From the NCBI RefSeq assembly GCF_013122565.1, contig NZ_CP053258.1: a DNA stretch of 64,000 nucleotides; one strand, 5' to 3'. This DNA is from Escherichia coli (GTDB taxonomy: Bacteria > Pseudomonadota > Gammaproteobacteria > Enterobacterales > Enterobacteriaceae). The notes beneath the pieces were generated by a model, which worked only from the letters and a program-made list of their open reading frames with translations, ran no database searches and was not told the origin of the DNA. Position 1 is the stretch's first letter; every line of letters starts with the position of its first letter. Made by a program: the position numbers and the translations under genes. Positions 7,083 to 28,512 of this stretch are shown here, one piece after another.

Positions 7083-9026
7083 ATGATTAAGTTTAGCGCA
7101 ACGCTCCTGGCCACGCTGATTGCCGCCAGTGTGAATGCAGCGACGGTCGATCTGCGTATCATGGAAACCACTGATCTGCATAGCAACATGATGGATTTCG
7201 ATTATTACAAAGACACCGCCACGGAAAAATTCGGACTGGTACGTACGGCAAGCCTGATTAACGATGCCCGCAATGAAGTGAAAAACAGCGTACTGGTCGA
7301 TAACGGCGATTTGATTCAGGGGAGTCCGCTGGCCGATTACATGTCGGCGAAAGGATTAAAAGCAGGTGATATTCACCCGGTCTATAAGGCATTAAATACG
7401 CTGGACTATACCGTCGGCACGCTTGGCAACCATGAGTTTAACTACGGTCTGGATTACCTGAAAAATGCGCTGGCAGGAGCGAAATTTCCTTATGTAAATG
7501 CCAACGTCATTGACGCCAGAACCAAACAGCCAATGTTTACACCGTATTTAATTAAAGATACCGAAGTGGTCGATAAGGACGGAAAAAAACAGACGCTGAA
7601 GATTGGCTATATTGGCGTCGTGCCGCCGCAAATCATGGGCTGGGATAAAGCTAATTTATCCGGGAAAGTGACGGTAAATGATATTACCGAAACCGTGCGC
7701 AAATACGTGCCTGAAATGCGCGAGAAAGGTGCCGATGTTATTGTCGTTCTGGCGCATTCCGGGCTGTCTGCCGATCCGTATAAAGTGATGGCGGAAAACT
7801 CAGTTTATTACCTCAGTGAAATTCCGGGCGTTAACGCCATTATGTTTGGTCATGCTCACGCCGTTTTCCCAGGTAAAGATTTTGCTGATATCGAAGGGGC
7901 TGATATCGCGAAAGGCACGCTGAATGGTGTTCCGGCGGTAATGCCAGGCATGTGGGGCGATCATCTTGGTGTAGTCGACTTACAACTCAGTAATGACAGC
8001 GGTAAATGGCAGGTGACGCAGGCGAAAGCGGAAGCACGACCGATTTACGACATCGCTAATAAAAAATCCCTCGCGGCGGAAGACAGCAAGCTGGTAGAAA
8101 CACTCAAAGCCGATCACGATGCCACACGCCAGTTCGTCAGCAAGCCAATCGGTAAATCTGCCGACAATATGTATAGCTATCTGGCGCTGGTGCAGGACGA
8201 TCCGACCGTGCAGGTGGTGAACAACGCGCAAAAAGCGTATGTCGAGCATTACATTCAGGGCGATCCGGATCTGGCAAAACTGCCGGTGCTTTCAGCTGCC
8301 GCACCGTTTAAAGTTGGTGGTCGCAAAAATGACCCGGCAAGCTATGTGGAAGTGGAAAAAGGCCAGTTGACCTTCCGTAATGCCGCCGATCTTTATCTCT
8401 ATCCCAATACGCTGATTGTGGTGAAAGCCAACGGTAAAGAGGTGAAAGAGTGGCTGGAGTGCTCCGCCGGACAGTTTAACCAGATTGATCCTAACAGCAC
8501 GAAACCACAGTCACTCATCAACTGGGATAGTTTCCGCACCTATAACTTTGATGTGATTGATGGTGTGAATTATCAGATTGATGTTACCCAGCCTGCCCGT
8601 TATGACGGCGAGTGCCAGATGGTTAATGCCAATGCGGAAAGGATTAAGAACCTGACCTTTAATGGCAAGCCGATTGATCCGAACGCCATGTTCCTCGTTG
8701 CCACCAATAACTATCGCGCTTACGGCGGCAAATTTGCTGGTACGGGCGACAGCCATATCGCTTTTGCTTCACCGGATGAGAACCGCTCGGTGCTGGCAGC
8801 TTGGATTGCTGATGAGTCGAAACGTGCGGGGGAAATTCACCCGGCAGCAGATAACAACTGGCGTTTAGCACCGATTGCCGGCGATAAGAAACTGGATATC
8901 CGTTTCGAAACCTCTCCGTCAGATAAAGCCGCAGCGTTTATTAAAGAGAAAGGGCAATATCCGATGAATAAAGTCGCGACCGATGATATCGGGTTTGCGA
9001 TTTATCAGGTGGATTTGAGTAAGTAA
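7083..9026 (+). CDS. cpdB: 2',3'-cyclic-nucleotide 2'-phosphodiesterase / 3'-nucleotidase CpdB
   Basis: 647 aa from [19 protein letters not shown] signal peptide; calcineurin-like metallophosphatase plus 5'-nucleotidase C-terminal region. Confidence 0.93.
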
Positions 9027-9044
9027 AACACTTCTTTTTCGGCC

Positions 9045-9236
9045 TATAAATCATCAACCGCATCCGGCACTTTTGGCGGATGCGCTGCTGGCGCATCTTA
9101 TCCGCCCTACAAGCCATGAACCGTTGACCATATAAGCGCAGCGCATCCGGCTCTTCCTGGCGGAGGCGATGCTGACGCATCTTATCCGCCCTACAAGCCA
9201 TGAACCATAGACCGGATAAGCGCAGCGCATCCGGCA
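9045..9236. repeat. Composite REP/BIME cluster with tandemly duplicated ~85 bp unit
   Basis: Two copies of gatgc(t)g...gcgcatcttatccgccctacaagccatgaacc...ataagcgcagcgcatccggc. Confidence 0.8.
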
Positions 9237-9237
9237 G

Positions 9238-9402
9238 TTATGCCGCACGTTCATCCCGCACCGCTAACACCTCGGGCAAATTCAACTCAATCCAGTCCGC
9301 CAGTGCAGCAACCTTTTCGCTCACCTGCTCGCCCAGCGGCGTGAGGCTGTATTCCACATGCGGCGGCGTTACTGGCGTTGTCCGGCCAATGTTAATAACT
9401 AG
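9238..9402 (-). pseudogene. ytfH: Truncated remnant of HxlR-family regulator ytfH (C-terminal ~45 codons only)
   Basis: Minus-strand frame reads ...PVTPPHVEYSLTPLGEQVSEKVAALADWIELNLPEVLAVRDERAA*; in-frame stop at 9403-9405 leaves at most 54 codons, no N-terminal HTH region. Confidence 0.55.
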
Positions 9403-9500
9403 TTAATTAAAGTGGCATCCTCCCGCATCCTCTCTGATAATGACGGGATGCCGGGAGCAATCATGTCTGCTTCCTGAACTTTCTTCTGACAGATCAATGG

Positions 9501-10502
9501 ATGCCAGTAATGATTAGCGGCGTGCTGTACGCCCTGTTAGCAGGGTTGATGTGGGGGCTTATCTTTGTCGGGCCGTTGATCGTGCCGGAATACCCGGCGA
9601 TGTTGCAGTCGATGGGGCGTTATCTGGCGTTAGGGTTAATTGCGCTACCCATTGCCTGGCTGGGACGCGTGCGTCTGCGTCAGTTGGCGCGTCGCGACTG
9701 GCTTACCGCCTTGATGCTCACCATGATGGGCAACCTTATCTATTACTTCTGCCTTGCCAGTGCCATTCAACGTACTGGCGCGCCTGTTTCCACGATGATT
9801 ATCGGCACCCTGCCGGTGGTCATTCCTGTCTTTGCCAATCTGCTTTATAGCCAGCGCGACGGCAAACTCGCATGGGGAAAACTCGCCCCGGCACTGGTTT
9901 GTATTGGCATCGGCCTGGCGTGTGTGAATGTTGCTGAGTTAAACCACGGACTCCCCGATTTTGACTGGGCACGTTATACCTCTGGCATCGTGCTGGCGTT
10001 AGTTTCCGTGGTCTGCTGGGCGTGGTATGCCCTGCGCAACGCCCGCTGGCTGCGGGAAAATCCCGACAAACATCCGATGATGTGGGCAACGGCGCAGGCG
10101 CTGGTCACGCTGCCGGTTTCTCTCATCGGCTATCTCGTCGCTTGTTACTGGCTGAATACGCAAACGCCGGATTTCACGCTTCCTTTTGGCCCGCGTCCGT
10201 TGGTTTTTATCAGCCTGATGGTCGCAATCGCTATTCTCTGCTCGTGGGTGGGCGCGCTTTGCTGGAATATCGCCAGCCAGCGTTTGCCTACGGTGATCCT
10301 CGGCCCGTTAATCGTGTTTGAGACGCTGGCGGGTTTGCTGTACACCTTTTTGCTACGCCAGCAATTGCCATCGCTGTTAACGTTTAGCGGCATTGCGCTG
10401 TTAGTGATTGGCGTGGTGATTGCGGTTCGGGCGAAGCCGGAGAAACCGTTGAGTGTCACTATTACCGACGTTAACAAACCCACTGCCACGAAAGGGTTAT
10501 AG
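9501..10502 (+). CDS. ytfF: Inner membrane DMT/EamA-family transporter YtfF
   Basis: 333 aa polytopic membrane ORF; synteny immediately upstream of ytfE; exact start uncertain. Confidence 0.85.
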   Translation: MPVMISGVLYALLAGLMWGLIFVGPLIVPEYPAMLQSMGRYLALGLIALPIAWLGRVRLRQLARRDWLTALMLTMMGNLIYYFCLASAIQRTGAPVSTMIIGTLPVVIPVFANLLYSQRDGKLAWGKLAPALVCIGIGLACVNVAELNHGLPDFDWARYTSGIVLALVSVVCWAWYALRNARWLRENPDKHPMMWATAQALVTLPVSLIGYLVACYWLNTQTPDFTLPFGPRPLVFISLMVAIAILCSWVGALCWNIASQRLPTVILGPLIVFETLAGLLYTFLLRQQLPSLLTFSGIALLVIGVVIAVRAKPEKPLSVTITDVNKPTATKGL

Positions 10503-10512
10503 CTTTACCTAA

Positions 10513-10535
10513 AAGATGCATTTAATATGCATCTT
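10513..10535. promoter_or_regulatory. NsrR-type operator upstream of ytfE
   Basis: aagatgcatttaatatgcatctt: 9-bp perfect inverted arms, 27 bp upstream of ytfE start; matches the known NsrR palindrome. Confidence 0.75.
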
Positions 10536-10561
10536 ATATTTTTCACCATGAGGTATCCGCT

Positions 10562-11224
10562 ATGGCTTATCGCGACCAATCTTTAGGGGAACTGGCACTC
10601 GCTATTCCTCGCGCTTCGGCACTGTTTCGTCAATATGATATGGATTACTGCTGCGGCGGTAAGCAAACGCTGGCGCGCGCGGCAGCACGTAAGGAGCTGG
10701 ATGTTGAGGTCATTGAAGCCAAACTGGCAAAGCTTGCAGAACAACCGATTGAGAAAGACTGGCGTAGCGCCCCGCTGGCGGAAATCATCGACCATATCAT
10801 CGTGCGCTACCACGATCGTCACCGCGAACAACTGCCAGAGTTGATCCTGCAAGCTTCTAAAGTCGAGCGCGTTCACGCCGACAAACCGAGCGTGCCAAAA
10901 GGGCTGACAAAATACCTGACCATGCTGCATGAAGAGCTTTCCAGCCACATGATGAAAGAAGAGCAGATCCTCTTCCCGATGATCAAACAAGGCATGGGCA
11001 GCCAGGCGATGGGGCCAATCAGCGTAATGGAAAGCGAGCACGATGAAGCGGGCGAACTGCTGGAAGTGATTAAACACACCACCAATAACGTCACACCGCC
11101 GCCGGAAGCCTGCACCACCTGGAAAGCGATGTATAACGGTATTAATGAATTGATTGATGACCTGATGGAGCACATCAGCCTGGAAAACAATGTGCTGTTC
11201 CCACGCGCGCTGGCTGGTGAGTGA
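10562..11224 (+). CDS. ytfE: Iron-sulfur cluster repair di-iron protein YtfE (RIC)
   Basis: 220 aa; ScdA_N plus hemerythrin-like region (HH..EE motifs); synteny. Confidence 0.93.
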
Positions 11225-11232
11225 TTCGTTCG

Positions 11233-11265
11233 ATCAACGATCCTGACATGTACGGGATCGTTGAT
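11233..11265. terminator. Hairpin between convergent ytfE and downstream repeat-protein gene
   Basis: 11-bp perfect stem atcaacgatcc/ggatcgttgat with 11-nt loop; weak T-tract. Confidence 0.5.
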
Positions 11266-11276
11266 TGTTAAGAGGT

Positions 11277-12770
11277 TCAGTCTTTCAATGGACGTAATTC
11301 ATTGTTGTAACTGGTGTAACTGCCTTCAACGGTAAGTAGATTGCCGTTTTCATCAAGATGCGCCGCATTGAGTTGTCGAGTTTCATTACGCCGCTTCGCA
11401 TCACGAACCAGCCCATCGCCTACGTAATAAATATAGTGGTCATCATGAGCAAAGGTATCTGATAATTGACCATTGGCGTATTTAAACCACGTCCATTGGC
11501 CTTTAAGCTCAAATTTCTCAACCGTGTCTTTATCAATAAAATACGTATAGCGATCGTCATGTGCCAAATAATTTAATGTTGTGCCATCGGGGCTTTTATA
11601 CCACTGCCATTGCCCATTGATATCAAAAATAGTCACATCATCCCTTGCAAGGAAATAAACTTTATTCCCTACAACATTAGCACCTTCCTGTAATTCTTGT
11701 TGCGGGTCTGGTAAATGAATGACCGAAAGCGTTTTTTCGACCGCAGAAATATACTTCACCAGATAGAGCGAATCTTTATATTGCGCCACATTCTTCGTCA
11801 GCGGGCGAAAATATTCCGGATCAACATCAGGAATGGTCGCAACCCGGCAGTCATTGGCACGCCAGGAAGCATCACGCGTCATCCAGGTTACTTTATCCCG
11901 CTGTAGGTCAAATGTATTCCGGCAATCTTTACCGAACGAATAACGTTTCTCCCCGTCCTTATCGCGATAAATCAGCAGGGAACCGGCTATCCAGCGCACA
12001 ATATGAAAGGTGTCCGGATCGGCGTCGATGGCATCTCCGTTCACAAAGACCTGCGATTTTGTCCGCCAGATTGTATCCCAGGGTGCGGGATGCCCCCAAC
12101 TTTCACAACTGTTTGGCAAATAAAGAATATTCCGTTGGGCCCAGGGTTTAATATCAAGAATAGAATATCCTTGGGTACTACCCAACCAGCGTCCCTGAAA
12201 GTAAAGATTGCGACGATCTTTCAGCACATCCGCGGAATCAACTGAATTCATCCTCCCCCCCACCTGTTGCAGCGAATCCATATCGACCTGCTTTTCGCCG
12301 TGATTATCATCCGTGCGTTCGCCGTCAAAATAGAGGCTGTCTTTATCGGCAGCAAAACGCCCCCATGCGCGGAATGTTGCGGCATCGACTTTCGGTGTTC
12401 CCGGCGGGTTCTGAACTATTTTCCCTGCCCATAAAATATGGCGACCATCGGTCAACCAGTCGAAACGCCAACTGCTGTTAGTTCTGATATTAGTGCCAGC
12501 ATCTACCTGAACAAAATCATTATTGATATCATCAGGAGAATCATATTTATCATCAGTGCCGTTGGGTACGCGGCGAAGTTGCTTAAACTTCACCTGCGAT
12601 AAATGAATATCCGGAAAATAGAGTCCGTAACCATCACTATCTTCAACGATATATTTTGTGCCTTGCCCCCACGGCTGGTAGTAAAACGCAGCATAAGGCA
12701 CACCAGAGCAAGCTATTGAAGCGGTTGAAAATAAAGCCAGTGCGAGACAAACAGGTTTAATTGGCAACAT
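11277..12770 (-). CDS. Secreted repeat protein, paralogue A (DKNYY-like repeats), function unknown
   Basis: 497 aa; N-terminal signal peptide MLPIKPVCLALALFSTASIACSG; repeated D-K-x-x-LYF/DA-x-TF blocks; ATG with AGGA RBS. Confidence 0.8.
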   Translation of the reverse strand: MLPIKPVCLALALFSTASIACSGVPYAAFYYQPWGQGTKYIVEDSDGYGLYFPDIHLSQVKFKQLRRVPNGTDDKYDSPDDINNDFVQVDAGTNIRTNSSWRFDWLTDGRHILWAGKIVQNPPGTPKVDAATFRAWGRFAADKDSLYFDGERTDDNHGEKQVDMDSLQQVGGRMNSVDSADVLKDRRNLYFQGRWLGSTQGYSILDIKPWAQRNILYLPNSCESWGHPAPWDTIWRTKSQVFVNGDAIDADPDTFHIVRWIAGSLLIYRDKDGEKRYSFGKDCRNTFDLQRDKVTWMTRDASWRANDCRVATIPDVDPEYFRPLTKNVAQYKDSLYLVKYISAVEKTLSVIHLPDPQQELQEGANVVGNKVYFLARDDVTIFDINGQWQWYKSPDGTTLNYLAHDDRYTYFIDKDTVEKFELKGQWTWFKYANGQLSDTFAHDDHYIYYVGDGLVRDAKRRNETRQLNAAHLDENGNLLTVEGSYTSYNNELRPLKD

Positions 12771-12802
12771 AGCGTCATCCTGAAGCTGTTAGCGTGAAGA
12801 GG

Positions 12803-13960
12803 TTATTTAAATAAGGGTTTAAGACCGCTCGGGGGTTGCTTCACCGATGACCAACCTCCCTTACCTAAGTTATAACGCAGCCATTTACCTTGTTGGACGT
12901 GCTCTTTCCCAACTCCAGTCGCTTGTTGAGTGTAAAGCTGCCCGTCTGTTGATATAAACGTGTTAGTTAATCCCCAACTACCACCTGCTTCAAGTGAGTC
13001 GGTGAGATCCTCTGGCTTGAGATTAATCAACTCCCCTTCGCCCAGGGCGTTGGTTGTGACTTTATAAATTTGGTTCTTATATAAACCGGTATTGCGAACA
13101 AACAGATAAAAATATTCCGGATCAACTCGCGGCAGCGTTTCATAAATACACTCACTGCCCGCTGGAGTGGCTTCATGTTTGAGCCAGGACACGTTATTCA
13201 GACCAATATTAAAAGGTGCACAGCGATAGCTGGTATCCTCCAGCTCATAGTCACGCTCACCGCTTTTATCGCGATAAACTAAGCGTTCGCCAGGCATCCA
13301 GCGGATTATCTGAAAGGTTTTACGATCGGCGGGCAGCGGCTTGCCATTAACAATCACCTGCGAATTTGTCAGCACAACAAATTGCAGGGCGGAATCATGC
13401 CGCACGATTTGAAACCCGTCAGCGCTTCCCAACCAGTGCCCCTTATGCCAAAGACTATTTTTATCACGCAGTAAATTCCAGATGTCCGTCTCTTCAAGCG
13501 TTGACATATCCACCTGCTTATCACCGCTATTATCATCGGTACGCTGACCGTCAAAATAGATACTGCGTTTATCAGCAGCGAAAGCGCCGAATGCCTGAAA
13601 ACTGGCAGCGTCGACTTTAGGTTTACCGGGGGGGTTTTTCAGGACTTTGCCAGACCAAAGGACAGAGCGTCCATCAGTGAGCCAGGCATGCTGGCAATCC
13701 CCCTCGTCATCACAATCGAACTTATCGGGATTAAAATCTGACAGTAACCGGCAATCTTGTTTATTGGTTAAATTGGCAATGCGCCAGAGGCGGGAAAAGT
13801 TAACGTCCAGCAGTTCGGAGAGGATCTCATCTTTTTGCCCCTTCTCTTCGGCAACGTAAACCGTGCCTTTCTCCTGCTGGCGGTAATAAAAATCCGCGCC
13901 CCAGGAAGGTGAAATGGAGAGCGGTAATGCGGTGATTAATAACCAACTTCGCGTAACCAT
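12803..13960 (-). CDS. Secreted repeat protein, paralogue B (DKNYY-like repeats), function unknown
   Basis: Signal peptide MVTRSWLLITALPLSISPSWGA; block WLTDGRSVLWSGKVLKNPPGKPKVDAASF...DKRSIYFDGQRTDDNSGDKQVDM nearly identical to paralogue A; start placed at ATG 13960 (track ORF starts at TTG 13984). Confidence 0.75.
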   Translation of the reverse strand: MVTRSWLLITALPLSISPSWGADFYYRQQEKGTVYVAEEKGQKDEILSELLDVNFSRLWRIANLTNKQDCRLLSDFNPDKFDCDDEGDCQHAWLTDGRSVLWSGKVLKNPPGKPKVDAASFQAFGAFAADKRSIYFDGQRTDDNSGDKQVDMSTLEETDIWNLLRDKNSLWHKGHWLGSADGFQIVRHDSALQFVVLTNSQVIVNGKPLPADRKTFQIIRWMPGERLVYRDKSGERDYELEDTSYRCAPFNIGLNNVSWLKHEATPAGSECIYETLPRVDPEYFYLFVRNTGLYKNQIYKVTTNALGEGELINLKPEDLTDSLEAGGSWGLTNTFISTDGQLYTQQATGVGKEHVQQGKWLRYNLGKGGWSSVKQPPSGLKPLFK

Positions 13961-14079
13961 AGTGATCTCTGAAATGAGTGGCAAAGATCCACAGTAAGTC
14001 CGCGCCTGGGGGGATGTCGATGACGGTAAGTTTTTTTAGGAATGTATAAAGACAAAGGAGATTGCTGACAAAGTGAGCT

Positions 14080-14190
<111 letters not shown>

Positions 14191-14226
14191 TGCGCCTGAA
14201 AGACACCCGCAGGTGCCTTAGCGGCA

Positions 14227-15630
14227 TTACTTCGCCATGCGTTTTTTACCAATAAACAACCAGCCCAGCCCCAACGCGATAAACCACAGCGGGGTGACCA
14301 GCAGCGCCTGGCGGGTATCATCTTCCAGCGTCAGCAGCACGATCACAAACACAAAGAACGCCATGCATACCCAGCACATCAGCTTGCCGAGCGGCATCTT
14401 GTAGATCGACTTCTCATGCAGATGAGGACGCTGTTTGCGATACACCAGGTACGAGCAAAGGATAATCGTCCAGACGAACATAAACAGAATCGCGGAAACG
14501 GTTGTAATCATCGTGAACGCGCCAATCACGCTAGGATTCACATACAACATCACCACGCCGCCGAGCAGACAGATACACGAGAAGGTCAATCCTTTCGCGG
14601 GTACTGCGCGCTTAGAAAGTTTAGCGAACGCTTTCGGCGCAACACCTTCCTGCGCCAGACCAAACAGCATACGGCTGGTAGAGAAGACACCGCTGTTAGC
14701 GGAAGACGCCGCAGAGGTCAGCACCACAAAGTTGATCACGCTGGCAGCCGCAGGCAAACCTACCAACACAAACAGTTCAACAAACGGGCTTTTCTCCGGG
14801 ACTACCGAACTCCACGGCGTCACGGACATAATCACAATCAGCGCGAAGACGTAGAACATAATGATACGGATCGGAATGGAGTTAATCGCGCGTGGCAGTG
14901 ATTTCTCTGGATCTTTGGTTTCCGCAGCTGTTGTACCTACCAGCTCAATCCCCACGAAAGCGAAAACCGCTATCTGGAATCCGGCAAAGAAGCCACTTAA
15001 ACCTTTCGGGAACCAGCCGCCGTCATTCCACAAATGCGCGAATGACGCTTCCACACCAGTCGGTGACTGAAAGTGCATCGCCACCATGACCAGGCCGACG
15101 ACAATCAGCGACACAATGGCGACGATTTTGATCATCGCAAACCAGAACTCCATCTCACCGAACATTTTCACGGTGGCGAGGTTAAGCGTCAGCAGCAGCA
15201 CTATCACCGCCAGCGAGGCGACCCAGTCGGAGAGATCGGGGAACCAGAACTGAGCATAAGCCGTGATCGCCACCACGTCTGCCATACCGGTTACAACCCA
15301 GCAGAACCAGTAAGTCCAGCCGGTGAAATATCCTGCCCACGGCCCGAGTAAATCGGAAGCGAAGTCACTAAAAGATTTGTATTCCAGATTCGAAAGCAGC
15401 AATTCCCCCATTGCCCGCATCACGAAAAAGAGCATAAAACCAATGATCATATAAACGAAAATGATCGACGGCCCGGCAAGGCTAATCGTTTTGCCAGACC
15501 CCATAAACAACCCCGTACCAATGGCACCGCCAATGGCAATAAGCTGAATATGTCGGTTTGTGAGATTGCGCCGTAGCGACTGTTCAGCCGGAGCCTGATC
15601 ATCGGCAACGACTTTTACCTGATCTACCAT
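14227..15630 (-). CDS. cycA: D-serine/D-alanine/glycine transporter CycA (APC family)
   Basis: 467 aa ORF MVDQVKVVADDQAPAEQSLRRNLTNRHIQLIAIGGAIGTGLFMGSGK... Confidence 0.93.
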   Translation of the reverse strand: MVDQVKVVADDQAPAEQSLRRNLTNRHIQLIAIGGAIGTGLFMGSGKTISLAGPSIIFVYMIIGFMLFFVMRAMGELLLSNLEYKSFSDFASDLLGPWAGYFTGWTYWFCWVVTGMADVVAITAYAQFWFPDLSDWVASLAVIVLLLTLNLATVKMFGEMEFWFAMIKIVAIVSLIVVGLVMVAMHFQSPTGVEASFAHLWNDGGWFPKGLSGFFAGFQIAVFAFVGIELVGTTAAETKDPEKSLPRAINSIPIRIIMFYVFALIVIMSVTPWSSVVPEKSPFVELFVLVGLPAAASVINFVVLTSAASSANSGVFSTSRMLFGLAQEGVAPKAFAKLSKRAVPAKGLTFSCICLLGGVVMLYVNPSVIGAFTMITTVSAILFMFVWTIILCSYLVYRKQRPHLHEKSIYKMPLGKLMCWVCMAFFVFVIVLLTLEDDTRQALLVTPLWFIALGLGWLFIGKKRMAK

Positions 15631-16559: not shown

Positions 16560-16777
16560 CGTATTTCCTTTCTTAGGGTATAAAAGTAGCGGGCAGCATA
16601 TCAGCCACACTTCTTTGGGTAAAACTTTGTCGCAGGAATGATGACAAATCCCGGGGAAAAAGAAACAATAGCAATATCCCGTATGAATATAATAAAGGCG
16701 GGTTTACCACGGACATCATAGCGTTAGCTTATTCATAGGCTATGATTGAGGAACAAGACGCGGAGCAGGAGGAAACC

Positions 16778-17416
16778 ATGCCCGGGCGCTTTGAACTAAA
16801 ACCAACCCTGGAGAAAGTCTGGCACGCGCCGGACAATTTTCGCTTCATGGACCCGCTGCCGCCGATGCATCGTCGGGGGATCATTATTGCCGCCATTGTA
16901 TTGGTGGTCGGATTTCTGCTTCCATCTGATGATACGCCCAACGCGCCGGTGGTGACGCGTGAAGCGCAGTTAGATATTCAGTCGCAATCACAACCGCCGA
17001 CAGAAGAACAGCTGCGGGCGCAATTAGTCACACCACAAAATGATCCTGATCAGGTGGCTCCGGTCGCTCCAGAACCTATACAGGAAGGCCAGCCAGAAGA
17101 ACAGCCGCAAACTACCCAAACGCAACCATTCCAGCCAGATAGCGGAATTGATAATCAATGGCGCTCTTACCGTGTCGAACCCGGTAAAACGATGGCGCAG
17201 CTGTTCCGCGACCACGGACTGCCCGCTACCGATGTCTATGCAATGGCGCAGGTAGAAGGCGCGGGTAAGCCGCTGAGTAATTTGCAAAACGGGCAGATGG
17301 TGAAAATCCGCCAGAACGCCAGCGGCGTGGTGACGGGCTTAACCATTGATACGGGGAATAATCAACAGGTCCTGTTTACCCGTCAGCCGGATGGCAGTTT
17401 TATTCGCGCGCGGTAG
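16778..17416 (+). CDS. ytfB: Cell-division-associated OapA/LysM-domain protein YtfB
   Basis: 212 aa from MPGRFELKPTLEKVW (GGAGCAGGAGG RBS); proline/glutamine-rich linker; synteny after fklB. Confidence 0.88.
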   Translation: MPGRFELKPTLEKVWHAPDNFRFMDPLPPMHRRGIIIAAIVLVVGFLLPSDDTPNAPVVTREAQLDIQSQSQPPTEEQLRAQLVTPQNDPDQVAPVAPEPIQEGQPEEQPQTTQTQPFQPDSGIDNQWRSYRVEPGKTMAQLFRDHGLPATDVYAMAQVEGAGKPLSNLQNGQMVKIRQNASGVVTGLTIDTGNNQQVLFTRQPDGSFIRAR

Positions 17417-17428
17417 ATGAATCAACAT

Positions 17429-18064
17429 TCACATGCATGGGGTCACAAGGAGCCAGCTTAAAAGCGTCTCCTTGATAACCTTATGTCTGTTCTCCAAAGC
17501 CTCAGGAGATATCATACTGATGTGATAAACCAACCCTAAAGTATGTTGGTTAAGAATATAATATCCAGCAAGAGCGGCAAGGCTAATGTTTACCTGTAAT
17601 GGATCTATATCTTGCTTAAAGATATTTTGTTTTTTTCCTTCATCAAGCAACCTTTCCATAATCTCTAAATGCGAGTGGTTAATTTCGGGCAAACGAGTTG
17701 ATTTCTTGTAGTGCTCCCCTCGACTTTGGTTTTCGGAATGAATTATCTTTAAAAACCAAGGATTCTTCACATAATAATCCCACGTAAAATCAATAAATTT
17801 TTCAATGGATTGCAATGGGTTTAGTCCAGTAAAGTCCAGATCTCTTTCTTTTTGCCGGATGTCATTACACGTATATTCAAGGACTTCAATAAACAAATTC
17901 TCTTTATTACCAAAATGATGATAAACAGTCTGCTTACTACAACCGGCTGCTTTAACAATATTATCGACCCTGGCACCTTCATAGCCATACTCTGCAAATT
18001 CATTGATAGCGCACAGTAATAATTTTTCTTTCAAAATTTGCACTTTACTAGTATCAAAATACAT
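17429..18064 (-). CDS. TetR/AcrR-family transcriptional regulator
   Basis: N-terminal TetR HTH ([28 protein letters not shown]); AT-rich; start placed at ATG 18064 with GAGGG RBS (track ORF begins at GTG 18070). Confidence 0.85.
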
Positions 18065-18430
18065 CTTCACCCCTCACACTAATCTTGCCAACCTATTATA
18101 TACTCTTTTACCGCGTGACCACGCACATTTTTCATACAAAAATCATCATTATCTTACAGAGCATTAAACCTACTTACATTGTTTCGTTACTGTGAAACAG
18201 ACAGAAAATTTTTCCTTGATGCATATTTGTTAAAAATGGAATATGGCTTTAATTAATTATATTCATATAATGAATATTTAACTATAAATAATTAATTCCA
18301 TTTATTTTCAAAGAGTTATAATTTTAAATATGATCTCCCTCACGAATCAACCAACTAGATGGTTGGTTCAAATAAAATCTATAGGCATCTTTGTCTCCAT
18401 GATGAATCCTGTATTTAAAGAGGTCCAAAA

Positions 18431-19222
18431 ATGAAATCAAAAAAACCCGTTGCTATTATTACCGGTGCTGCCCGTGGTATCGGTAAAGGTTGTGCTATTG
18501 AACTAGCTCGCGCTGGATTTAATCTTCTAATAAATGATCGACCAGATAAAGACAGCATCGAAAAACTTAAAGCAACTCAAAAACTATGTATCGCTGAAGG
18601 TGTTGAAGTCATAACGTTTCCAGCCAACATTGGCGATTTAACGTTACATGAAAAGATGCTCGACGCGGCGCAAAATCAGTGGGAGCGTTTGGACTGCCTG
18701 CTCAATAACGCCGGAATTTCGGTGAAAAAGCGTGGTGATATTCTCGACCTGGAGCCAGACAGTTTCGACGATAACATTGCCATCAATACCCGCGCACCTT
18801 TCTTCCTCGCCCAGGCTTTCAGCAAGCGCCTGTTGGCGCAACCCAAACCAGAAGCTGAACTACCGCATCGCTCAATTATTTTTGTCAGCTCAATTAACGC
18901 CATCATGCTGGCGATGAATCGAGGTGAGTACACCATTGCCAAAACAGCTGTATCTGCCGCTGCCCGCCTGTTTGCCGCACGTCTTTGTGAAGAGCAAATT
19001 GGCGTTTATGAAATCCGCCCAGGTTTAATCAAAACCGATATGACTATTCCAGCAACAGCTTATTACGACGAACTGATCGCTAAGGGGTTAGTGCCATGGG
19101 GTCGTTGGGGTTTTCCACAGGACATCGCCTCCACTGTCCGTGCAATGGCGGAAGGCAAACTGATTTACACCTGTGGTCAGGCGGTCGCCATCGACGGCGG
19201 CTTAAGTATGCCACGCTTCTGA
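18431..19222 (+). CDS. Short-chain dehydrogenase/reductase (SDR) family oxidoreductase
   Basis: TGAARGIGKG nucleotide-binding motif, NNAG, catalytic Y-x3-K (YTIAK). Confidence 0.88.
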   Translation: MKSKKPVAIITGAARGIGKGCAIELARAGFNLLINDRPDKDSIEKLKATQKLCIAEGVEVITFPANIGDLTLHEKMLDAAQNQWERLDCLLNNAGISVKKRGDILDLEPDSFDDNIAINTRAPFFLAQAFSKRLLAQPKPEAELPHRSIIFVSSINAIMLAMNRGEYTIAKTAVSAAARLFAARLCEEQIGVYEIRPGLIKTDMTIPATAYYDELIAKGLVPWGRWGFPQDIASTVRAMAEGKLIYTCGQAVAIDGGLSMPRF

Positions 19223-19231
19223 GGCTGAACC

Positions 19232-20074
19232 ATGAGAGATCTGTTACATCGCCCGGATTTATTCAGCATCAATACCGCGACGCTGGGCTATAAAATGCCT
19301 CTGCCCGCCCTTATTGATGCTTGTGCCGCACGCGGCATCGGTGCGATTGCCCCCTGGCGCAGAGAGTTGCAGAGCGAAGATCTTCAGCAAATCGTCCGCC
19401 AGCTTGCCGCCAATAACATGAGCGTTTCTGGTTTATGCCGTAGCACCTACTACACCGCGCCGACGCTGGCAGAGCGCAAGCTGGCGATTGATGATAACCG
19501 CCGGGCGCTGGACGACGCAGCGATGCTGAACGCCGCCTGTTATATGCAGGTGGTTGGCGGTCTGCCAACGGGCACTAAAGATCTGTATGAAGCGCGGGAG
19601 CAAGTGAAAGAAGGGGTTCGCCAGTTGCTGTCACATTCGAAAGATGTCGGCGTGCCGATTGCACTGGAGCCACTGCACCCGATGACTGCTGCCGATCGCT
19701 CTTGCCTCTGCTCGCTACGTCAGGCGCTGGACTGGTGTGATGAACTCGATCCCGATGGTGAGTTTGGCCTCGGCGTGGCGGTCGATGTCTACCACGTCTG
19801 GTGGGATCCGGATCTCACCAGTCAGATCCTGCGCGCTGGAAAACGGATCCTCGCGTTTCATGTTTCCGACTGGCTGGTGCCGACGACCGATCTGGTCAAT
19901 GATCGGGGAATGCCGGGAGATGGCGTCATCAATATTCCGTCAATTCGTCGGCTGGTTGAAAACGCCGGATTTAATGGTTCTATCGAATTAGAAATATTTT
20001 CTTCATTCTGGTGGGAAAAGAATATCAACCAAATACTGGATAAAAGTATTAACGGACTTTCTTATTATTGTTAA
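19232..20074 (+). CDS. Sugar phosphate isomerase/epimerase-like TIM-barrel protein (xylose isomerase-like fold)
   Basis: 280 aa; family assignment by overall pattern only; 9 bp after SDR stop. Confidence 0.6.
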   Translation: MRDLLHRPDLFSINTATLGYKMPLPALIDACAARGIGAIAPWRRELQSEDLQQIVRQLAANNMSVSGLCRSTYYTAPTLAERKLAIDDNRRALDDAAMLNAACYMQVVGGLPTGTKDLYEAREQVKEGVRQLLSHSKDVGVPIALEPLHPMTAADRSCLCSLRQALDWCDELDPDGEFGLGVAVDVYHVWWDPDLTSQILRAGKRILAFHVSDWLVPTTDLVNDRGMPGDGVINIPSIRRLVENAGFNGSIELEIFSSFWWEKNINQILDKSINGLSYYC

Positions 20075-20223
20075 ACATCACACTATATTTTTCTCTCGAA
20101 ATTAGTTGATTGTTTAAATTTGCATGTTTTAGAAAGTTATGAGTGAAGTAATAAATCAATAAATTAAATATCTTACAGAGCATTGCGAGTGTTAGGTATT
20201 TATAATCAAATAGGGATTGGCAT

Positions 20224-21765
20224 ATGAGCAAGATTAATACTGCAGAAATACTGGTCGCAGGTATTAAAGATGGCGCAACAATCGCCATTAGCGGTAATGG
20301 CGGTGGAATGGTTGAAGCCGATCATCTACTACAAGCTCTGGAAACACGGTTTCTGGAAACCGGGCATCCATGTAACCTTACGCTTATACACTCATTAGGT
20401 GTAGGAGACCGTGAACACAAAGGCAGTAACCGTTTTGCTCATAAAGGAATGTTAAAGCGTGTTATTGCAGGACATTTCACATGGTCACCAAGAATGCAGG
20501 CTCTGGTTAAGAATAATGAGGTCGAGGCTTATTGCTTTCCTAGCGGAGTTATTCAGACATTATTACGTGAAATAGGCGCTGGACGTCCAGGACTGTTCAC
20601 CCATGTCGGGGTAGGAACTTTTATTGATCCGCGTAATGGAGGAGGGAAATCTAATTCACGAACGACAGAGGATCTGGTAGAGCTAATTGAAATTGATGGA
20701 GAAACAAAGCTACGCTATCGCCCATTTAAAGTTGATTACGCAATTGTGCGCGGTACTTATGCGGATTCACGCGGTAATATTAGCCTGGAAGAAGAAGCCG
20801 TCGATCTGGATTGCAATTCTATAGCTCTAGCTGCCCATAATAGCGGTGGTAAAGTCTTTGTGCAGGTACGTGACATTCTTGAAACAGGTGCGATTGAACC
20901 CAGACGAGTAAAAATACCCGGAATCTTAGTCGATGGCGTCGTGGAATATAGAGATCAACAACAAACATATCTTGGTGGTTACGATCTTACTATCAGCGGC
21001 CAGCATCGTCGTCTTTGTTCTCAAAACTCTATTGAACTGGTTTCAAACCCAATACGTCGATTAATTGCACGCCGTGCAGCACGCGAGTTAGTTGCTGGCG
21101 CATCCACAAACTTTGGCTTTGGCATGCCAGGAGGGATCCCAGGTATTGCTCTGCGTGAAGGAGTCCCTTTTGATACCCTTTGGCTCAGCGTGGAACAAGG
21201 TGTGCATAATGGCATGATGCTGGATGATGCTCTGTTTGGCTGTGCTCGCAATGCTGATGCGATAATTCCTTCTCTTGAGCAGTTTGATTTTTATAGTGGT
21301 GGTGGTGCCGATATAACTTTTCTCGGTATGGGGGAAATGGATCAGTATGGAAACGTGAATGTTTCCCATCTCAACAATAACCTTATCGGACCAGGCGGTT
21401 TTATCGAAATTGCACAGAATGCCCATAAAGTGGTGTTCTGCGGCACGTTTGATGCCAAGGGTAGCAAAATAAACGTCACAAATGCGGGCCTGGAAATCAT
21501 TCAATCCGGCCAGGTAGCAAAACTTGTTTCACAAGTAGAAGAGATAACTTTCAGCGGAGAATATGCGCAACAACGTAAACAGGATGTGTTGTACATTACC
21601 GAGCGCGCTGTATTCCAGTTAACGCCACAGGGTGTGGAACTAATTGAGGTTGCCCCTGGCGTGGACATTGACCACGACATTCTGCCGTATATGGCCTTCC
21701 GTCCAATTATCAAGCACCCACGCCTGATGGAAAGTAGTCTGTTTACGCCGATGGAGGATGCATGA
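20224..21765 (+). CDS. Acyl-CoA:acetate/3-ketoacid CoA-transferase, fused alpha-beta (YdiF-like, family I)
   Basis: 513 aa; clear colinear similarity to E. coli YdiF as recalled (GHFTWSPR, GVGTFIDPRNGGGK, FDFYSGGGADITFLGMGEMDQYGNVNVS, ITERAVF). Confidence 0.85.
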   Translation: MSKINTAEILVAGIKDGATIAISGNGGGMVEADHLLQALETRFLETGHPCNLTLIHSLGVGDREHKGSNRFAHKGMLKRVIAGHFTWSPRMQALVKNNEVEAYCFPSGVIQTLLREIGAGRPGLFTHVGVGTFIDPRNGGGKSNSRTTEDLVELIEIDGETKLRYRPFKVDYAIVRGTYADSRGNISLEEEAVDLDCNSIALAAHNSGGKVFVQVRDILETGAIEPRRVKIPGILVDGVVEYRDQQQTYLGGYDLTISGQHRRLCSQNSIELVSNPIRRLIARRAARELVAGASTNFGFGMPGGIPGIALREGVPFDTLWLSVEQGVHNGMMLDDALFGCARNADAIIPSLEQFDFYSGGGADITFLGMGEMDQYGNVNVSHLNNNLIGPGGFIEIAQNAHKVVFCGTFDAKGSKINVTNAGLEIIQSGQVAKLVSQVEEITFSGEYAQQRKQDVLYITERAVFQLTPQGVELIEVAPGVDIDHDILPYMAFRPIIKHPRLMESSLFTPMEDA

Positions 21766-23834
21766 GTCAGCTTGATGACACCATCCTTGATGCGCTGACA
21801 CACGTCACTTTCCCAAAGGGGTTTGTGTCAGCAGAGCCAACACCAATTGTCACCGTTGAGGATGTTGATTACCCGATCTGGCACGTTGATGCGCTGGTCG
21901 TTGGTAGCGGCGCAGCAGGATTACGTGCGGCAGTTGAACTTAAACGCCGCCAGCAAAATGTGCTGATCGCTACCGCCGGGTTATATATGGGGACGTCGGC
22001 ATGTTCTGGTTCCGATAAACAGACACTGTTTACCGCCGCTACCGCGGGCAACGGCGACAACTTCACCAAACTGGCAGAGGCACTGGCGAGCGGTGGGGCG
22101 ATGGATCACGACACCGCTTATGTCGAAGCGGTAGGTTCTCTGCACACTCTAGGCGGGTTGCAATATCTTGGTCTGGAATTACCGGAAGATCGCTATGGCG
22201 CGATTCTTCGTTATCAAACCGACCATGACGAAGCTGGGCGTGCAACCTCGTGTGGGCCGCGTACCTCAAGGTTAATGGTGAAAGTGCTGTTGGAAGAAGT
22301 ACAGCGCCTCGCCATTCCAGTGTTGACCAGTGCAACAGTGATTAAACTGCTGCATCAGCGTGACGAAAACGGCGAAGACCGCGTGGCAGGGGCAATCCTC
22401 GCGACCGGTCATCGCGCCCATAACCCATGGGGGCTGGCAATTGTGACTGCGCCCAATGTGGTACTGGCAACGGGCGGACCGGGCGAGCTTTATCGCGACA
22501 GTGTTTATCCACATAAATGCTTCGGCTCGCTGGGGCTGGCGCTGGAGGAAGGTCTGACGCTAACCAATCTGACCGAAAGCCAGTTTGGTATAGGCACACC
22601 GCGCAGCACGTTTCCGTGGAATTTGTCCGGCACCTATGTGCAGGTGATCCCGTATATCTATTCCGTGGATGCTGAGGGTAACGAGTATAACTTCCTCGCG
22701 GATTACTATCGCACCACCCAAGAGCTGGCTTCAAACATCTTCCGTAAAGGCTATCAGTGGCCGTTCCACGCCACGCGGGTAATGGATTTTGGCTCCAGCT
22801 TGTTAGATATGGCGGTGGCGCAAGAACAGCAACATGGTCGTCTGGTGTTTATGGATTTCAATCGTAATCCTGAAGCGGTGCCTGGTGATCTACCCTTCTC
22901 ATTAGATCGACTGGACGACGACGTTCGCGCGTATCTGGAAAATAACGACGCTCTGGCACCATCGCCCATCGAACGGCTGCAACGAATGAATCCGCTGTCT
23001 ATCTCGCTGTATAAGATGCACGGTTACGATCTCACCACGCAGCCATTGCAGTTTGCCATGAATAATCAGCACATGAATGGCGGCATTGAAGTGGATATCT
23101 GGGGACAAACATCCCTGCCCGGTTGTTTTGCAGTGGGAGAAGTAGCCGGTACTCACGGCGTTACCCGACCTGGCGGCGCGGCGCTGAATGCCGGACAGGT
23201 TTTTGCCGTGCGTCTGGCGCGCTTTATTGGTTGCACACAAAAGCGGTCTGTTGAGGAGGATGTCGCGCAGCTGGTAGCCTCATCTCTGCATATAGTCAGA
23301 GAAGTTATCGCTCAGGCACTGGCAAACGAGAACGGAATGGCGCTGGTAACGGTGAAAGAAAAAATCCAGGCGCGAATGTCTGATTACGCTGGATTTATTT
23401 GTCATGCCGATAAAGTTCGTCACGCCACCCGTGACGCCCTGCTGTTAAGTGAGTTTGTACAACAACACGGTTTGACCATCAAACATGTTGGCGAAATTGC
23501 CGAACTATTTATGTGGCGGCATATGGCACTGACTTCTGCCGCCATATTGACACAATTGACGCATTATATTGACGCAGGTGGCGGCAGTCGTGGGGCGCGG
23601 ATAATTATTGATCACTATGGGGAAGGTCTACCACAAACTCGACAGGGTGCAAAAGAAAAATGGCGTTTTAGATTGGAGTCTGAAAATGAAAGAGAATCAC
23701 GAGCAACGATTCAGCTTAACAATGGAGAATTTATAATAAATAAAAACAAGATACGTCAAATAATCAATTTCAAAAATAATTATTTTGAAAAAAATTGGCC
23801 GGAGTTTCTCCTTGGAGAAATCTATATAAAATAA
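21762..23834 (+). CDS. FAD-dependent oxidoreductase (fumarate reductase/succinate dehydrogenase flavoprotein-like), with unusual AT-rich C-terminal extension
   Basis: N-terminal dinucleotide-binding motif VVGSGAAGLRAA; 690 aa; ATGA start/stop overlap with upstream CoA-transferase. Confidence 0.8.
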   Translation: MSQLDDTILDALTHVTFPKGFVSAEPTPIVTVEDVDYPIWHVDALVVGSGAAGLRAAVELKRRQQNVLIATAGLYMGTSACSGSDKQTLFTAATAGNGDNFTKLAEALASGGAMDHDTAYVEAVGSLHTLGGLQYLGLELPEDRYGAILRYQTDHDEAGRATSCGPRTSRLMVKVLLEEVQRLAIPVLTSATVIKLLHQRDENGEDRVAGAILATGHRAHNPWGLAIVTAPNVVLATGGPGELYRDSVYPHKCFGSLGLALEEGLTLTNLTESQFGIGTPRSTFPWNLSGTYVQVIPYIYSVDAEGNEYNFLADYYRTTQELASNIFRKGYQWPFHATRVMDFGSSLLDMAVAQEQQHGRLVFMDFNRNPEAVPGDLPFSLDRLDDDVRAYLENNDALAPSPIERLQRMNPLSISLYKMHGYDLTTQPLQFAMNNQHMNGGIEVDIWGQTSLPGCFAVGEVAGTHGVTRPGGAALNAGQVFAVRLARFIGCTQKRSVEEDVAQLVASSLHIVREVIAQALANENGMALVTVKEKIQARMSDYAGFICHADKVRHATRDALLLSEFVQQHGLTIKHVGEIAELFMWRHMALTSAAILTQLTHYIDAGGGSRGARIIIDHYGEGLPQTRQGAKEKWRFRLESENERESRATIQLNNGEFIINKNKIRQIINFKNNYFEKNWPEFLLGEIYIK

Positions 23835-23937
23835 ACGCCTTTTAAATCGGTAGCTATTAAATAAATATTTTATGATTTGCAAAATTCACGCTTTTACATT
23901 GTGAGTATTTTCTATTGATAATATCAAAGGTTTAATC

Positions 23938-25218
23938 ATGAAAAAAATCAAGCACTATAGGTGGCATATTATCGTCTTAATATGTTTCATCACTGTAATT
24001 AATTATTTGGACAGAACAGCATTAGGCGTGGCCGCGCCCACAATAATGCAAACGATGGGGATAACTAAAGAGCAATATTCATGGGTTGTCAGTGCATTCC
24101 AGTTAGCATATACAATTGGACAACCTGTAATGGGATTCTTTATTGACCTTATCGGTCTGAAATTTAGCTTTTTCATTTGCATTATAATCTGGGGACTTGC
24201 CACTATGGGGCACGCATTAGCGGGATCCTGGCAAGGTTTGGCCTTTATGCGTGGCCTGATGGGAGTAAGTGAAGCCTCCGTCTTTCCCGCAGGGATAAAG
24301 ACTGTATCGACGTGGTTTCCTGCTAAAGAACGCGGTATTGCTGCGGGATTCTTCAACACGGGTACATCTCTTGGTGCCATGCTTGCTCCACCGCTTATTG
24401 CCTGGTGCATAATGTTCCATAGTTGGCAATTCGCATTTCTGGTTTCTGGCTGTCTGGCATTATTTGCGGCAGTGATGTGGTTTATCTTTTATAAAGACCC
24501 CAAAGATGCCAAAGGACTTTCTGAAGAGGAAAGACACTATATAGAGTCTGGGCAAGAAAAACATCTTGATTCTAATAAAAGTAAAAAAGCAACCATTCTT
24601 CATGTTATTAAAAAACGCAATTTCTGGGGTATTGGCATTACCCGTTTCCTGGCAGAACCAGCTTGGGGAACAATCAACTTTTGGGTACCTATATTTTTCG
24701 TTGAAACATTGCATTTCAGCTTAAAAGATATAGCAATGTTTATCTGGCTCCCGTTTTTATTAGGTGACTTGGGTTGTTTATCTAGTGGTTTTATCGCTAA
24801 GTTTTTTCACGATCGCGGGGTTAGCCTTCTTAATGCACGAAGAATTACATTTACATTCGCTGCAACAACGATGATGTCGATTGGTTTGGTTAGCATCGTC
24901 ACTAATCCGTACATTGCTGTATTACTAATTAGTATCGGTGCATTCTCACATCAATGCCTATCTACTGTTGTTGCCACTATGGGGGCCGATCTTTTTGAAA
25001 AAGAAGAAGTCGCAACAGTAGTTGGATTATCGGGAGGGTGTGGATATACAGGGCAACTGATATTTAATATATTCATTGGTGTATTCGTTGCTGCAATTGG
25101 CTTCTCGACATTCTTTGTGATACTTGCCTTCCTGGATATTATTGGTGCCATTATTTTATGGTCTGTAATTAGACCACCGAAACTTGTTGAACAAACAAAT
25201 TTAGTAACACAATCGTAG
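23938..25218 (+). CDS. MFS transporter, anion:cation symporter (ACS)-like, probable organic-acid permease
   Basis: 426 aa, 12-TM pattern, N-terminal YLDRTALGVAAP motif. Confidence 0.85.
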   Translation: MKKIKHYRWHIIVLICFITVINYLDRTALGVAAPTIMQTMGITKEQYSWVVSAFQLAYTIGQPVMGFFIDLIGLKFSFFICIIIWGLATMGHALAGSWQGLAFMRGLMGVSEASVFPAGIKTVSTWFPAKERGIAAGFFNTGTSLGAMLAPPLIAWCIMFHSWQFAFLVSGCLALFAAVMWFIFYKDPKDAKGLSEEERHYIESGQEKHLDSNKSKKATILHVIKKRNFWGIGITRFLAEPAWGTINFWVPIFFVETLHFSLKDIAMFIWLPFLLGDLGCLSSGFIAKFFHDRGVSLLNARRITFTFAATTMMSIGLVSIVTNPYIAVLLISIGAFSHQCLSTVVATMGADLFEKEEVATVVGLSGGCGYTGQLIFNIFIGVFVAAIGFSTFFVILAFLDIIGAIILWSVIRPPKLVEQTNLVTQS

Positions 25219-25269
25219 TTTTTATTTTTACCTATAGAATTTTAATCGAAAAAAAATAAAGGAAAGATT

Positions 25270-25749
25270 ATGTCTCAAACAGAAATTATTCTTCCTTCAG
25301 GAAGAGAACTTACTCCAGGTGAATATGGTTATGCCAATCTGGAACCTGGCGATCACTACCAGACTCCCGGTCTTAACGTAACAGAGTCACAGATTGTTGC
25401 TTTTGCGGGGATAAGCGGTGATTTTTTCGATGTTCATATGGATGATGAATTTGCAAGGGAAAAAGGATTTCCAGGACGCATTGCCCACGGTCTGTTAGGT
25501 TTAGCATTGACGGACGGCCTGAAGAATCGTTCTATTGTACGTTTACGTGCAGTTGCTACATTAAACTGGAACTGGTCATTCTGTGCACCATTATTGCCTG
25601 GAGATCATATTCACGCCGTTATTACTGTTGTTAAAAAACGCCCCACCAAACGTGAAGACCGAGGCATTGTGACTTTTGCTTTACAATTGTTTAATCAACA
25701 TGGAAAGATAATACAGCGAGGCGAAACTCTGCTGATGATGATGCAATAA
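25270..25749 (+). CDS. MaoC-like (hot-dog fold) dehydratase / enoyl-CoA hydratase
   Basis: 159 aa; GRIAHGLLGLALTDGL hot-dog motif; AGGAAA RBS. Confidence 0.8.
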   Translation: MSQTEIILPSGRELTPGEYGYANLEPGDHYQTPGLNVTESQIVAFAGISGDFFDVHMDDEFAREKGFPGRIAHGLLGLALTDGLKNRSIVRLRAVATLNWNWSFCAPLLPGDHIHAVITVVKKRPTKREDRGIVTFALQLFNQHGKIIQRGETLLMMMQ

Positions 25750-25760
25750 TCTGAGTTTGA

Positions 25761-25797
25761 AATACGTACCAACGAGTATGCTGGTACGTATTTCTTC
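25761..25797. terminator. Intrinsic terminator between convergent catabolic operon and HipA-like gene
   Basis: 10-bp perfect stem aatacgtacc/ggtacgtatt, 12-nt loop, followed by tttcttc. Confidence 0.65.
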
Positions 25798-25868
25798 GCA
25801 AACGCACTGTTTATGCTCTCTCCCTCATAATGACTGTTTCATCTAACTAATATTTCTAAATAACTGTC

Positions 25869-27137: not shown

Positions 27138-27150
27138 AATTAATTTCCTT

Positions 27151-27642
27151 TTATCGGTTTTTTATCGGTTTTTTTATCGGTTGTAATAGTGCAGCAAGAG
27201 AGGTTGACGTTTCCCCTGGAATAGTTGGCGTTGAGTCTTTTGCCAGTGCTGTTAAATCCGTGGTGAGATGACCTTCTTTCTCGCGTTTCGTCTGAAATGA
27301 GGCTGTCTGAATCCCTTCTTCATTCTTAACTGATGAACGAGAAAGCCCTCTTTTTTTAATCAAACGGGAATCCTGGAGCTGATGCCCTAAGGCGTCTTCA
27401 GCTGCAAGCTTATTTAAATCCGTTTCCAGGCCCAAAACCTGCATCACAGACAAATATGCCCCTATCGTGACCCCTGCACTTCCTGCCTCCAGAGAACGCA
27501 ATGTGATTGGCGACATCCCTGCACGCTCAGCAACTTGCTTTGCGGTTAGCTTACGTCGTAAACGAGCAAGTTTCAGACGCTCACCAAATTCACTAAGCAT
27601 CTGATTCGTATAAGGGAGTAACGGTGCTGTTTTTTTACCCAT
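27151..27642 (-). CDS. XRE-family HTH protein (HipB-like putative antitoxin) with long low-complexity C-terminal tail
   Basis: 163 aa; HTH ~residues 16-75 ([23 protein letters not shown]); 13 bp upstream of kinase gene on same strand. Confidence 0.75.
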
Positions 27643-27663
27643 AGTGATAATATTTTATCTTTT

Positions 27664-27682
27664 TATGGCTATGATAGCCATA
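27664..27682. promoter_or_regulatory. Palindromic candidate operator upstream of the HTH/kinase operon
   Basis: tatggctat-g-atagccata, 9-bp perfect inverted arms, ~22 bp upstream of HTH start codon. Confidence 0.55.
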
Positions 27683-28030: not shown

Positions 28031-28050
28031 ACGTCTCGTTGAATAACGAA

Positions 28051-28512
<462 letters not shown>

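Follow-up and report, generated by a model that had tools for sequence, protein, structure and literature searches.

The window, that is, the whole stretch of 64,000 nucleotides that was analysed, is a segment of the Escherichia coli chromosome extending from tamA past ytfB and rplI to nnr/tsaE, and its shared parts are ~92-99% identical to K-12. In comparison with K-12, extra DNA is present at 11225-14246, 17811-27998 and 44585-49725. The second of these segments begins inside a gene for a TetR/AcrR-family regulator, which converges on ytfB and belongs to a gene cluster occurring in two versions, termed here type A and type B. The features of the interval from ytfB to rplI are as follows.

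16742-17416, plus strand: open reading frame of ytfB, encoding the cell division protein YtfB with LysM_OapA and OapA_N domains; the gene proper is 16778-17416 (212 aa) when the start annotated in reference genomes is used, the mechanical reading frame beginning at 16742
17291-17421: block at the 3' end of ytfB that is near-invariant across the Escherichia versions, its last ~40 nt being conserved in other genera too
17400-17438, minus strand: latent shifted frame, overlapping the ytfB 3' end by 17 nt and colinear with the tail of the 221-aa type B regulator
17414-17416, plus strand: TAG stop of ytfB (protein end ...FIRAR)
17417-17428: 12-bp spacer between the convergent ytfB and TetR stops, atgaatcaacat
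17422-17438: 17-nt segment missing in type A, the counterpart of an 18-nt segment in the 221-aa type B
17429-17431, minus strand: TGA stop of the TetR gene ("tca" on the plus strand), probably put in frame by a 1-nt deletion
17429-18070, minus strand: open reading frame of the TetR/AcrR-family regulator (gene 17429-18064, 211 aa, 36% GC), which is of type B, 211-aa subtype
17811: end of K-12 similarity inside the TetR gene, corresponding to the edge of the K-12 ytfA remnant, a deletion or replacement endpoint in K-12
18065-18430: AT-rich intergenic region between the TetR gene and the divergent operon, holding a palindrome at 18241-18268
18431-25749, plus strand: operon for an SDR, a sugar-phosphate isomerase/epimerase, a CoA-transferase, an FAD-dependent oxidoreductase, an MFS transporter and a MaoC dehydratase
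25869-27642, minus strand: HipA-like toxin (kinase, 422 aa) and HTH antitoxin (163 aa) at the rplI end of the variable segment
27998-28500, minus strand: right edge of the variable segment, K-12 similarity returning at 27998, 53 nt beyond the rplI stop
28051-28500, minus strand: rplI

The other departures from K-12 lie at a distance from this interval. Two open reading frames on the minus strand at 11277-13984, located between ytfE and cycA, encode a protein of 497 aa without a Pfam match and one of 393 aa with a weak, sub-threshold DKNYY match, and neither is part of the K-12 chromosome, although both occur in E. albertii L093 as well as in E. coli L091 and L095. The segment at 44585-49725, ~5 kb between rlmB and yjfI that K-12 does not have, harbors genes for a galactarate/altronate-type dehydratase, an MFS transporter, a DHDPS-family lyase and an IclR regulator, and looks like a putative module for sugar-acid utilisation. 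At 9142-9388 the K-12 qorB-ytfH interval is reduced to 226 nt of similarity, and qorB appears to be missing or replaced in the window.

The 211-aa regulator is identical to the protein already recorded as WP_171459932.1 / QJU25795.1 at NCBI, and database records place its sequence on a single 4.82-Mb E. coli chromosome and a single contig of the Logan assemblies. Both of its Pfam domains are complete, namely PF00440 TetR_N (E = 2.3e-14, profile positions 5-47 of 47) and PF17938 TetR_C_29 (E = 6.7e-30, profile positions 1-117 of 119), and the match to the latter stops before the variable tail, which reads ...LLVTPCM in the window. The AT-rich palindrome upstream of the gene (ATATGGCTTTAATTAATT / AATTAATTATATTCATAT) is a candidate TetR operator.

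A sequence-only reading of this DNA had described the convergent stops as lying 12 bp apart, with no room for a terminator and with an abrupt switch to AT-rich DNA, and had taken the site for the left junction of an island. The descriptive part holds in full. The coordinates of both stops were confirmed, no terminator-like site was found between them, and GC falls from 0.55 to ~0.35, being 0.547 at 17150-17449, 0.380 at 17450-17749 and 0.34 at 17600-18049, or 0.554 for ytfB and 0.360 for the TetR gene when calculated per gene. The junction is not an assembly artefact of the window, because 16429-19064 matches the independent Logan contig SRR11451224 at 100% identity. In all 12 loci that were measured, including those of Salmonella, Klebsiella and Entomohabitans, an AT-rich TetR gene (GC 0.36-0.43) adjoins a GC-rich ytfB (0.54-0.62). 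A high AT content therefore characterises the TetR gene in each of the taxa examined, and the switch in composition reflects the gene itself and not a signal specific to the genome of the window.

The arrangement itself is widespread in the family. A TetR gene converging on ytfB, together with the operon between ytfB and rplI, is found in Salmonella, E. albertii, E. whittamii, Klebsiella spallanzanii and Entomohabitans. The order rplI ... MFS, FAD oxidoreductase, CoA-transferase, (enoyl-CoA hydratase), isomerase, SDR, TetR, converging on ytfB and followed by fklB and cycA, is shared by Salmonella enterica, E. albertii and other E. coli, and recurs in E. whittamii, Entomohabitans teleogrylli and K. 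spallanzanii; the order of the operon genes is conserved across Enterobacteriaceae, and locus comparison revealed that the carriers of the cluster keep the same flanking core genes in the same order. Full clusters in other E. coli contain the TetR, SDR, isomerase, CoA-transferase, FAD oxidoreductase and MFS genes, with the enoyl-CoA hydratase, MaoC and hipBA-like pair as optional members.

The same arrangement can be recognised in K-12 in a decayed form. The pseudogene ytfA (b4205), which overlaps the 3' end of ytfB, retains the 3' two-thirds of a TetR gene, while the N-terminal third and the whole operon are missing and yjfZ is present instead; judged from these alignments, ytfA is best described as the deletion remnant of a type A TetR gene and cluster. 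An intact empty site was not seen, as K-12 retains the truncated TetR gene at ytfB and the other genera carry the whole cluster. The type A junction, with the TetR 3' end abutting ytfB, was detected in at least 5,002 of 5,426 complete E. coli genomes (>92%) by means of a 121-nt probe at >=80% coverage. In E. coli O169:H41 2014EL-1345-2 (L002, locus 8701-10850) an IS609-family element with tnpA and tnpB interrupts the type A TetR remnant, so that the same gene has decayed further.

Within Escherichia, the TetR protein of the window is 97% identical to a rare E. coli type B (MSI001, EC23HZZ201) and 81% identical to the common type A. The junction of the 211-aa type B occurs in only nine of the 5,426 complete genomes, all nine being 93% identical to the window, and the best match to the TetR region among complete E. 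coli genomes is 93-95% identical. Type A, represented by K-12 ytfA and, in full length, by proteins such as WP_001298021.1 (FDAARGOS_1284), has the same position and orientation toward ytfB, the same Pfam pair of TetR_N and TetR_C_29 and the same divergent operon beside it, whereas it has no 17/18-nt segment, overlaps ytfB by 17 nt, ends in ...VDPSSTARE and is 58-80% identical to the window in nucleotides. The 221-aa type B of E. albertii and some E. coli (P0112, P0113) represents the same version of the whole cluster as the window, including MaoC and the hipBA-like pair, and carries an extra segment at the same place; in contrast to the 17 nt of the window, this segment measures 18 nt, the TetR frame reads into ytfB with a 17-nt overlap to end in ...STARE, and the nucleotide identity of the TetR gene to that of the window is 85-93%. 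The closest forms are the 211-aa type B regulators WP_072644705.1 (MSI001, EC23HZZ201), P0111 and P0115, which share with the window the 12-bp gap, the 17-nt segment and a frameshifted tail of two residues, and differ in that the tail is NPRM or TPRM instead of TPCM, that ytfB contains a divergent patch at 16900-17299 which the window does not have, and that the remaining cluster is 71-97% identical.

Several differences in gene content accompany the two versions. Between the isomerase and the CoA-transferase genes, type A and Salmonella carry a gene for a crotonase-type enoyl-CoA hydratase; type B does not have it, and a 149-nt AT-rich gap (20075-20223) occupies this site in the window. A MaoC-type dehydratase gene follows the MFS gene in type B (25270-25749 in the window), and the hydratase step may in this way have been taken over by a non-orthologous enzyme. 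The gene of the HipA-like toxin is frameshifted in FDAARGOS_1284, absent in MSI001 and L095, and shortened in L092, where it adjoins a transposase gene (DDE_Tnp_1). The cluster of the window is a mosaic, the hipBA end of which resembles FDAARGOS_1284 at 92-98%, while the nearest cluster that was found, that of L095, is just 83-97% identical to it, and the donor of the window's own sub-version was not found.

A further peculiarity of the window is the short tail of its regulator. Protein alignment revealed that the conserved core of the family ends in ...SWLL(V), and that the tails beyond this core differ in both sequence and length:

Leminorella: QK
Entomohabitans: VAK, with a 15-nt gap to ytfB
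Salmonella: IDKASIWRE
Citrobacter: VDNNATARE
E. coli type A: ...VDPSSTARE
P0002 contigs: VDPKSLKGGVSTARE
P0003 contigs: VDPLHMAVDASTARE
221-aa type B: ...VNPMQLDADSSTARE, with the end ...STARE

The recurrent ending ...ARE is the antisense of the last ytfB codons (FIRAR and stop), the TetR gene and ytfB overlapping by 17 nt there, and in most relatives the TetR frame enters ytfB antisense in this manner to end in ...STARE. Nucleotide alignment indicated that the segment 17422-17438 is missing in the type A loci of K-12, FDAARGOS_1284 and E. albertii NBRC 107761, and that Salmonella also has a gap at this site, offset by 3 nt in the alignment. Three states can be distinguished between ...TAGATGAA and GGGTCAAC: type A has 0 nt, the 221-aa type B adds 18 nt, and the window, L095 and MSI001 each add 17. 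The absent base is aligned between 17438 and 17439, directly after a Pro codon, its position being ambiguous by a base or two, and the frame thereafter reads Cys-Met-stop in the window and Arg-Met-stop in its relatives. The shifted frame of the window still reads a stretch of 12 residues where the 221-aa relatives read MQLDADSSTARE before the stop.

Taken together, the CM tail and the 12-bp gap are most simply explained by a derived 1-nt deletion. That the 17-nt form derives from the 18-nt form is a conclusion from parsimony, because read-through ARE or RE tails are found in type A, Salmonella, Citrobacter, K. spallanzanii and the P0002 and P0003 contigs; the alternative would be a 1-nt insertion giving rise to the 221-aa form. 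Loss of the 10-residue tail is presumably harmless and the tail dispensable, because the Pfam domains are complete and other genera have equally short tails, and the short tail of Entomohabitans with its 15-nt gap implies that non-overlapping ends arose more than once. The suggestion that the last residues of the regulator might be chimeric is correct insofar as C and M are not homologous to the tails of the relatives, but their cause is a 1-nt frameshift rather than fusion with foreign DNA. Homologues with nearly the same C-terminus and a conserved flank do exist and largely refute a chimeric origin: P0111 (...LLVNPRM, present on 425 contigs) and P0115 (...LLVTPRM) agree with the window in tail length, final Met and the 12-bp spacer, beyond which ytfB is conserved.

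The position at which the divergent DNA begins was examined by sliding identity. Against K-12, the window is 97-100% identical up to 17399, through ytfB, and 58-80% identical from 17422 onward. When E. albertii of type B is compared with E. albertii of type A, 97-100% in ytfB is followed by 64-76% in the TetR gene. The 221-aa type B of E. coli (L091) and that of E. albertii (L093) are 82-97% identical in fklB and ytfB and 98-100% identical from ~17300 onward; their clusters (locus 2000-10650, ~8.6 kb) are 99.4-99.8% identical while the flanks reach 80-94%, so that the cluster is more alike between the two species than the DNA around it. The near-identity from ~17300 onward indicates recent transfer, with the left crossover in the last ~120 nt of ytfB. 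Within the FAD-oxidoreductase and CoA-transferase genes of the same pair of loci, identity drops to 89-92% over a patch of 1.5 kb, and the overall pattern points to a probable recent interspecies transfer followed by a secondary recombination patch.

Identity steps at 17300-17421, in or at the end of conserved ytfB, were thus observed in four independent comparisons, and the block 17291-17421 is likely the homology anchor in which left crossovers are resolved. For the window, the crossover is bracketed to about 17276-17421 and no finer, because this stretch is nearly invariant in all versions. A more precise placement at 17420/17422, from K-12-like TAG ATGAA, was considered and rejected: the first five nucleotides of the spacer, ATGAA, are common to type A and 221-aa type B genomes and hence not diagnostic. 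The alignment with K-12 and with TetR homologues has accordingly located an identity step, though only within this bracket, and the earlier placement of an island boundary at or inside the TetR 3' end was right in that K-12 similarity does break here, and wrong in that no island was inserted into the strain at this junction. MSI001 (L001) and L095, the nearest TetR relatives of the window, carry the divergent ytfB patch at 16900-17299, which is 81-92% identical to every Escherichia compared; E. albertii and E. whittamii were rejected as its source at 81-90% identity. The patch may be donor flank that was brought in with the 211-aa type B cluster.

From these comparisons, the junction very probably marks the limit of a divergent form of an old cluster, exchanged by homologous recombination and carrying a 1-nt frameshift in the tail of the regulator. 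The region between ytfB and rplI is occupied by an old chromosomal catabolic cluster whose gene for a presumed TetR-family repressor converges on ytfB, the common arrangement being one in which the TetR frame runs 17 nt into the antisense of the last ytfB codons to give ...(S)TARE. The Escherichia versions are deeply divergent, a common type A, of which ytfA is the K-12 remnant, standing beside a rare type B in which 18 extra nt separate ytfB from the TetR core. Such versions would be swapped by homologous recombination anchored in the conserved flanks, with the left crossover in the near-invariant 3' end of ytfB. The window combines a ytfB of the E. coli consensus with a rare sub-version of type B. 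A 1-nt deletion directly past the Pro codon would then have produced ...TPCM-stop, removed the 10-residue tail and converted the 17-nt overlap into a 12-bp gap. The coincident fall in identity and GC at 17417-17431 is accordingly attributed to the start of a divergent version of a gene that is AT-rich in itself, and not to an insertion scar.

This exchange has a well-known counterpart in the O-antigen and capsule loci between conserved flanking genes, which are core-flanked variable loci replaced by homologous recombination. The locus between ytfB and rplI resembles them in having divergent versions at a fixed site, crossovers in the conserved flanks, near-identical versions across species, and mosaicism. 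In contrast with them, it encodes a small catabolic operon and a presumed repressor and displays no sign of diversifying selection here. As a tentative and rather unlikely extension, type A with its crotonase-type hydratase and type B with the MaoC-type enzyme and hipBA-like pair might be kept as functionally distinct versions and shuttled among E. coli, E. albertii and other enterobacteria, with the dual-coding end of ytfB and the TetR gene serving as a fixed recombination anchor.

Among the competing explanations, an improbable one regards types A and B as an ancient polymorphism that predates the split of E. coli and E. albertii and is held by balancing selection, the edge at ytfB being the limit to which recombination has homogenised the flank. 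Both species do carry both versions with the same left edge, the A and B TetR genes differ by 25-35% in nucleotides, far beyond the divergence of the species, and the gene content differs as well, with a crotonase-type enoyl-CoA hydratase in A against a MaoC dehydratase in B. The near-identity of the 221-aa type B between the species, seen against their much more divergent flanks, nevertheless requires recent transfer of at least that sub-version, and type B is very rare, as the count of nine complete genomes demonstrates.

Slightly less probable again is a regulatory role of the close convergent ends, whether through antisense or transcriptional interference between ytfB and the TetR gene or through a shared bidirectional terminator in the TetR 3' coding region. 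The plus strand of 17370-17490 does fold better than its shuffles, with a hairpin at ~17431-17490 (z = -2.96), and convergent overlap or near-abutment is conserved across genera. The minus strand is, however, unremarkable (z = -1.2), the spacer and tail differ freely in both sequence and length, the DNA separating the two stops holds no terminator-like site, and the sole candidate near the junction in the terminator scan was a weak 5-bp stem inside ytfB (17380-17394). The hairpin was rejected as a conserved terminator, as it is not kept in an 11-sequence alignment across versions and genera, the consensus energy being -4.9 kcal/mol and the covariation term ~0.

The original proposal, in which site-specific or illegitimate recombination placed a genomic island directly behind ytfB in this lineage and the TetR 3' end was rebuilt at the junction, is very improbable, for although the abrupt fall in GC and K-12 identity at 17417-17431, the heterogeneous composition inside 17417-28000 and the toxin-antitoxin pair at the far end are compatible with it, the cluster occupies the same site in several genera, K-12 keeps a TetR remnant instead of an empty site, the TetR end abuts ytfB in most complete E. 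coli genomes, the same 12-bp junction exists in other E. coli, AT-richness of the TetR gene is universal in the family, and neither an integrase nor flanking repeats were found. With respect to the last point, Pfam analysis of the ten large open reading frames of 16742-27642 (those of at least 150 aa) identified only metabolic, transporter, regulator and HipA/HTH domains, and no integrase, recombinase or transposase domain. The short direct repeats that had been envisaged near 27683-28000 are likewise missing: no direct or inverted repeats beyond chance link 17380-17460 with 27600-28100, the two regions sharing 0 direct 8-mers where 0.56 would be expected.

The exchange of cluster versions by homologous recombination, with the frameshifted tail, therefore remains the preferred reading, and its consequences are chiefly those for annotation. 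The break in composition beside ytfB is not to be taken as an island insertion site, and the short tail of the regulator would be a harmless frameshift variant of an overlapping-gene arrangement. No description of the variable locus between ytfB and rplI was found in the literature; the case is an ordinary one of well-known genome variation, and the protein concerned is already annotated in public databases. If the versions were indeed maintained as functionally distinct forms, the locus would become a small, tractable case of the exchange of catabolic-pathway versions between species. In any event, K-12 ytfA can be understood as the remnant of a conserved enterobacterial operon whose versions are highly divergent and which has been transferred between E. 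coli and E. albertii, and the locus offers useful background for work on this operon rather than surprising biology.
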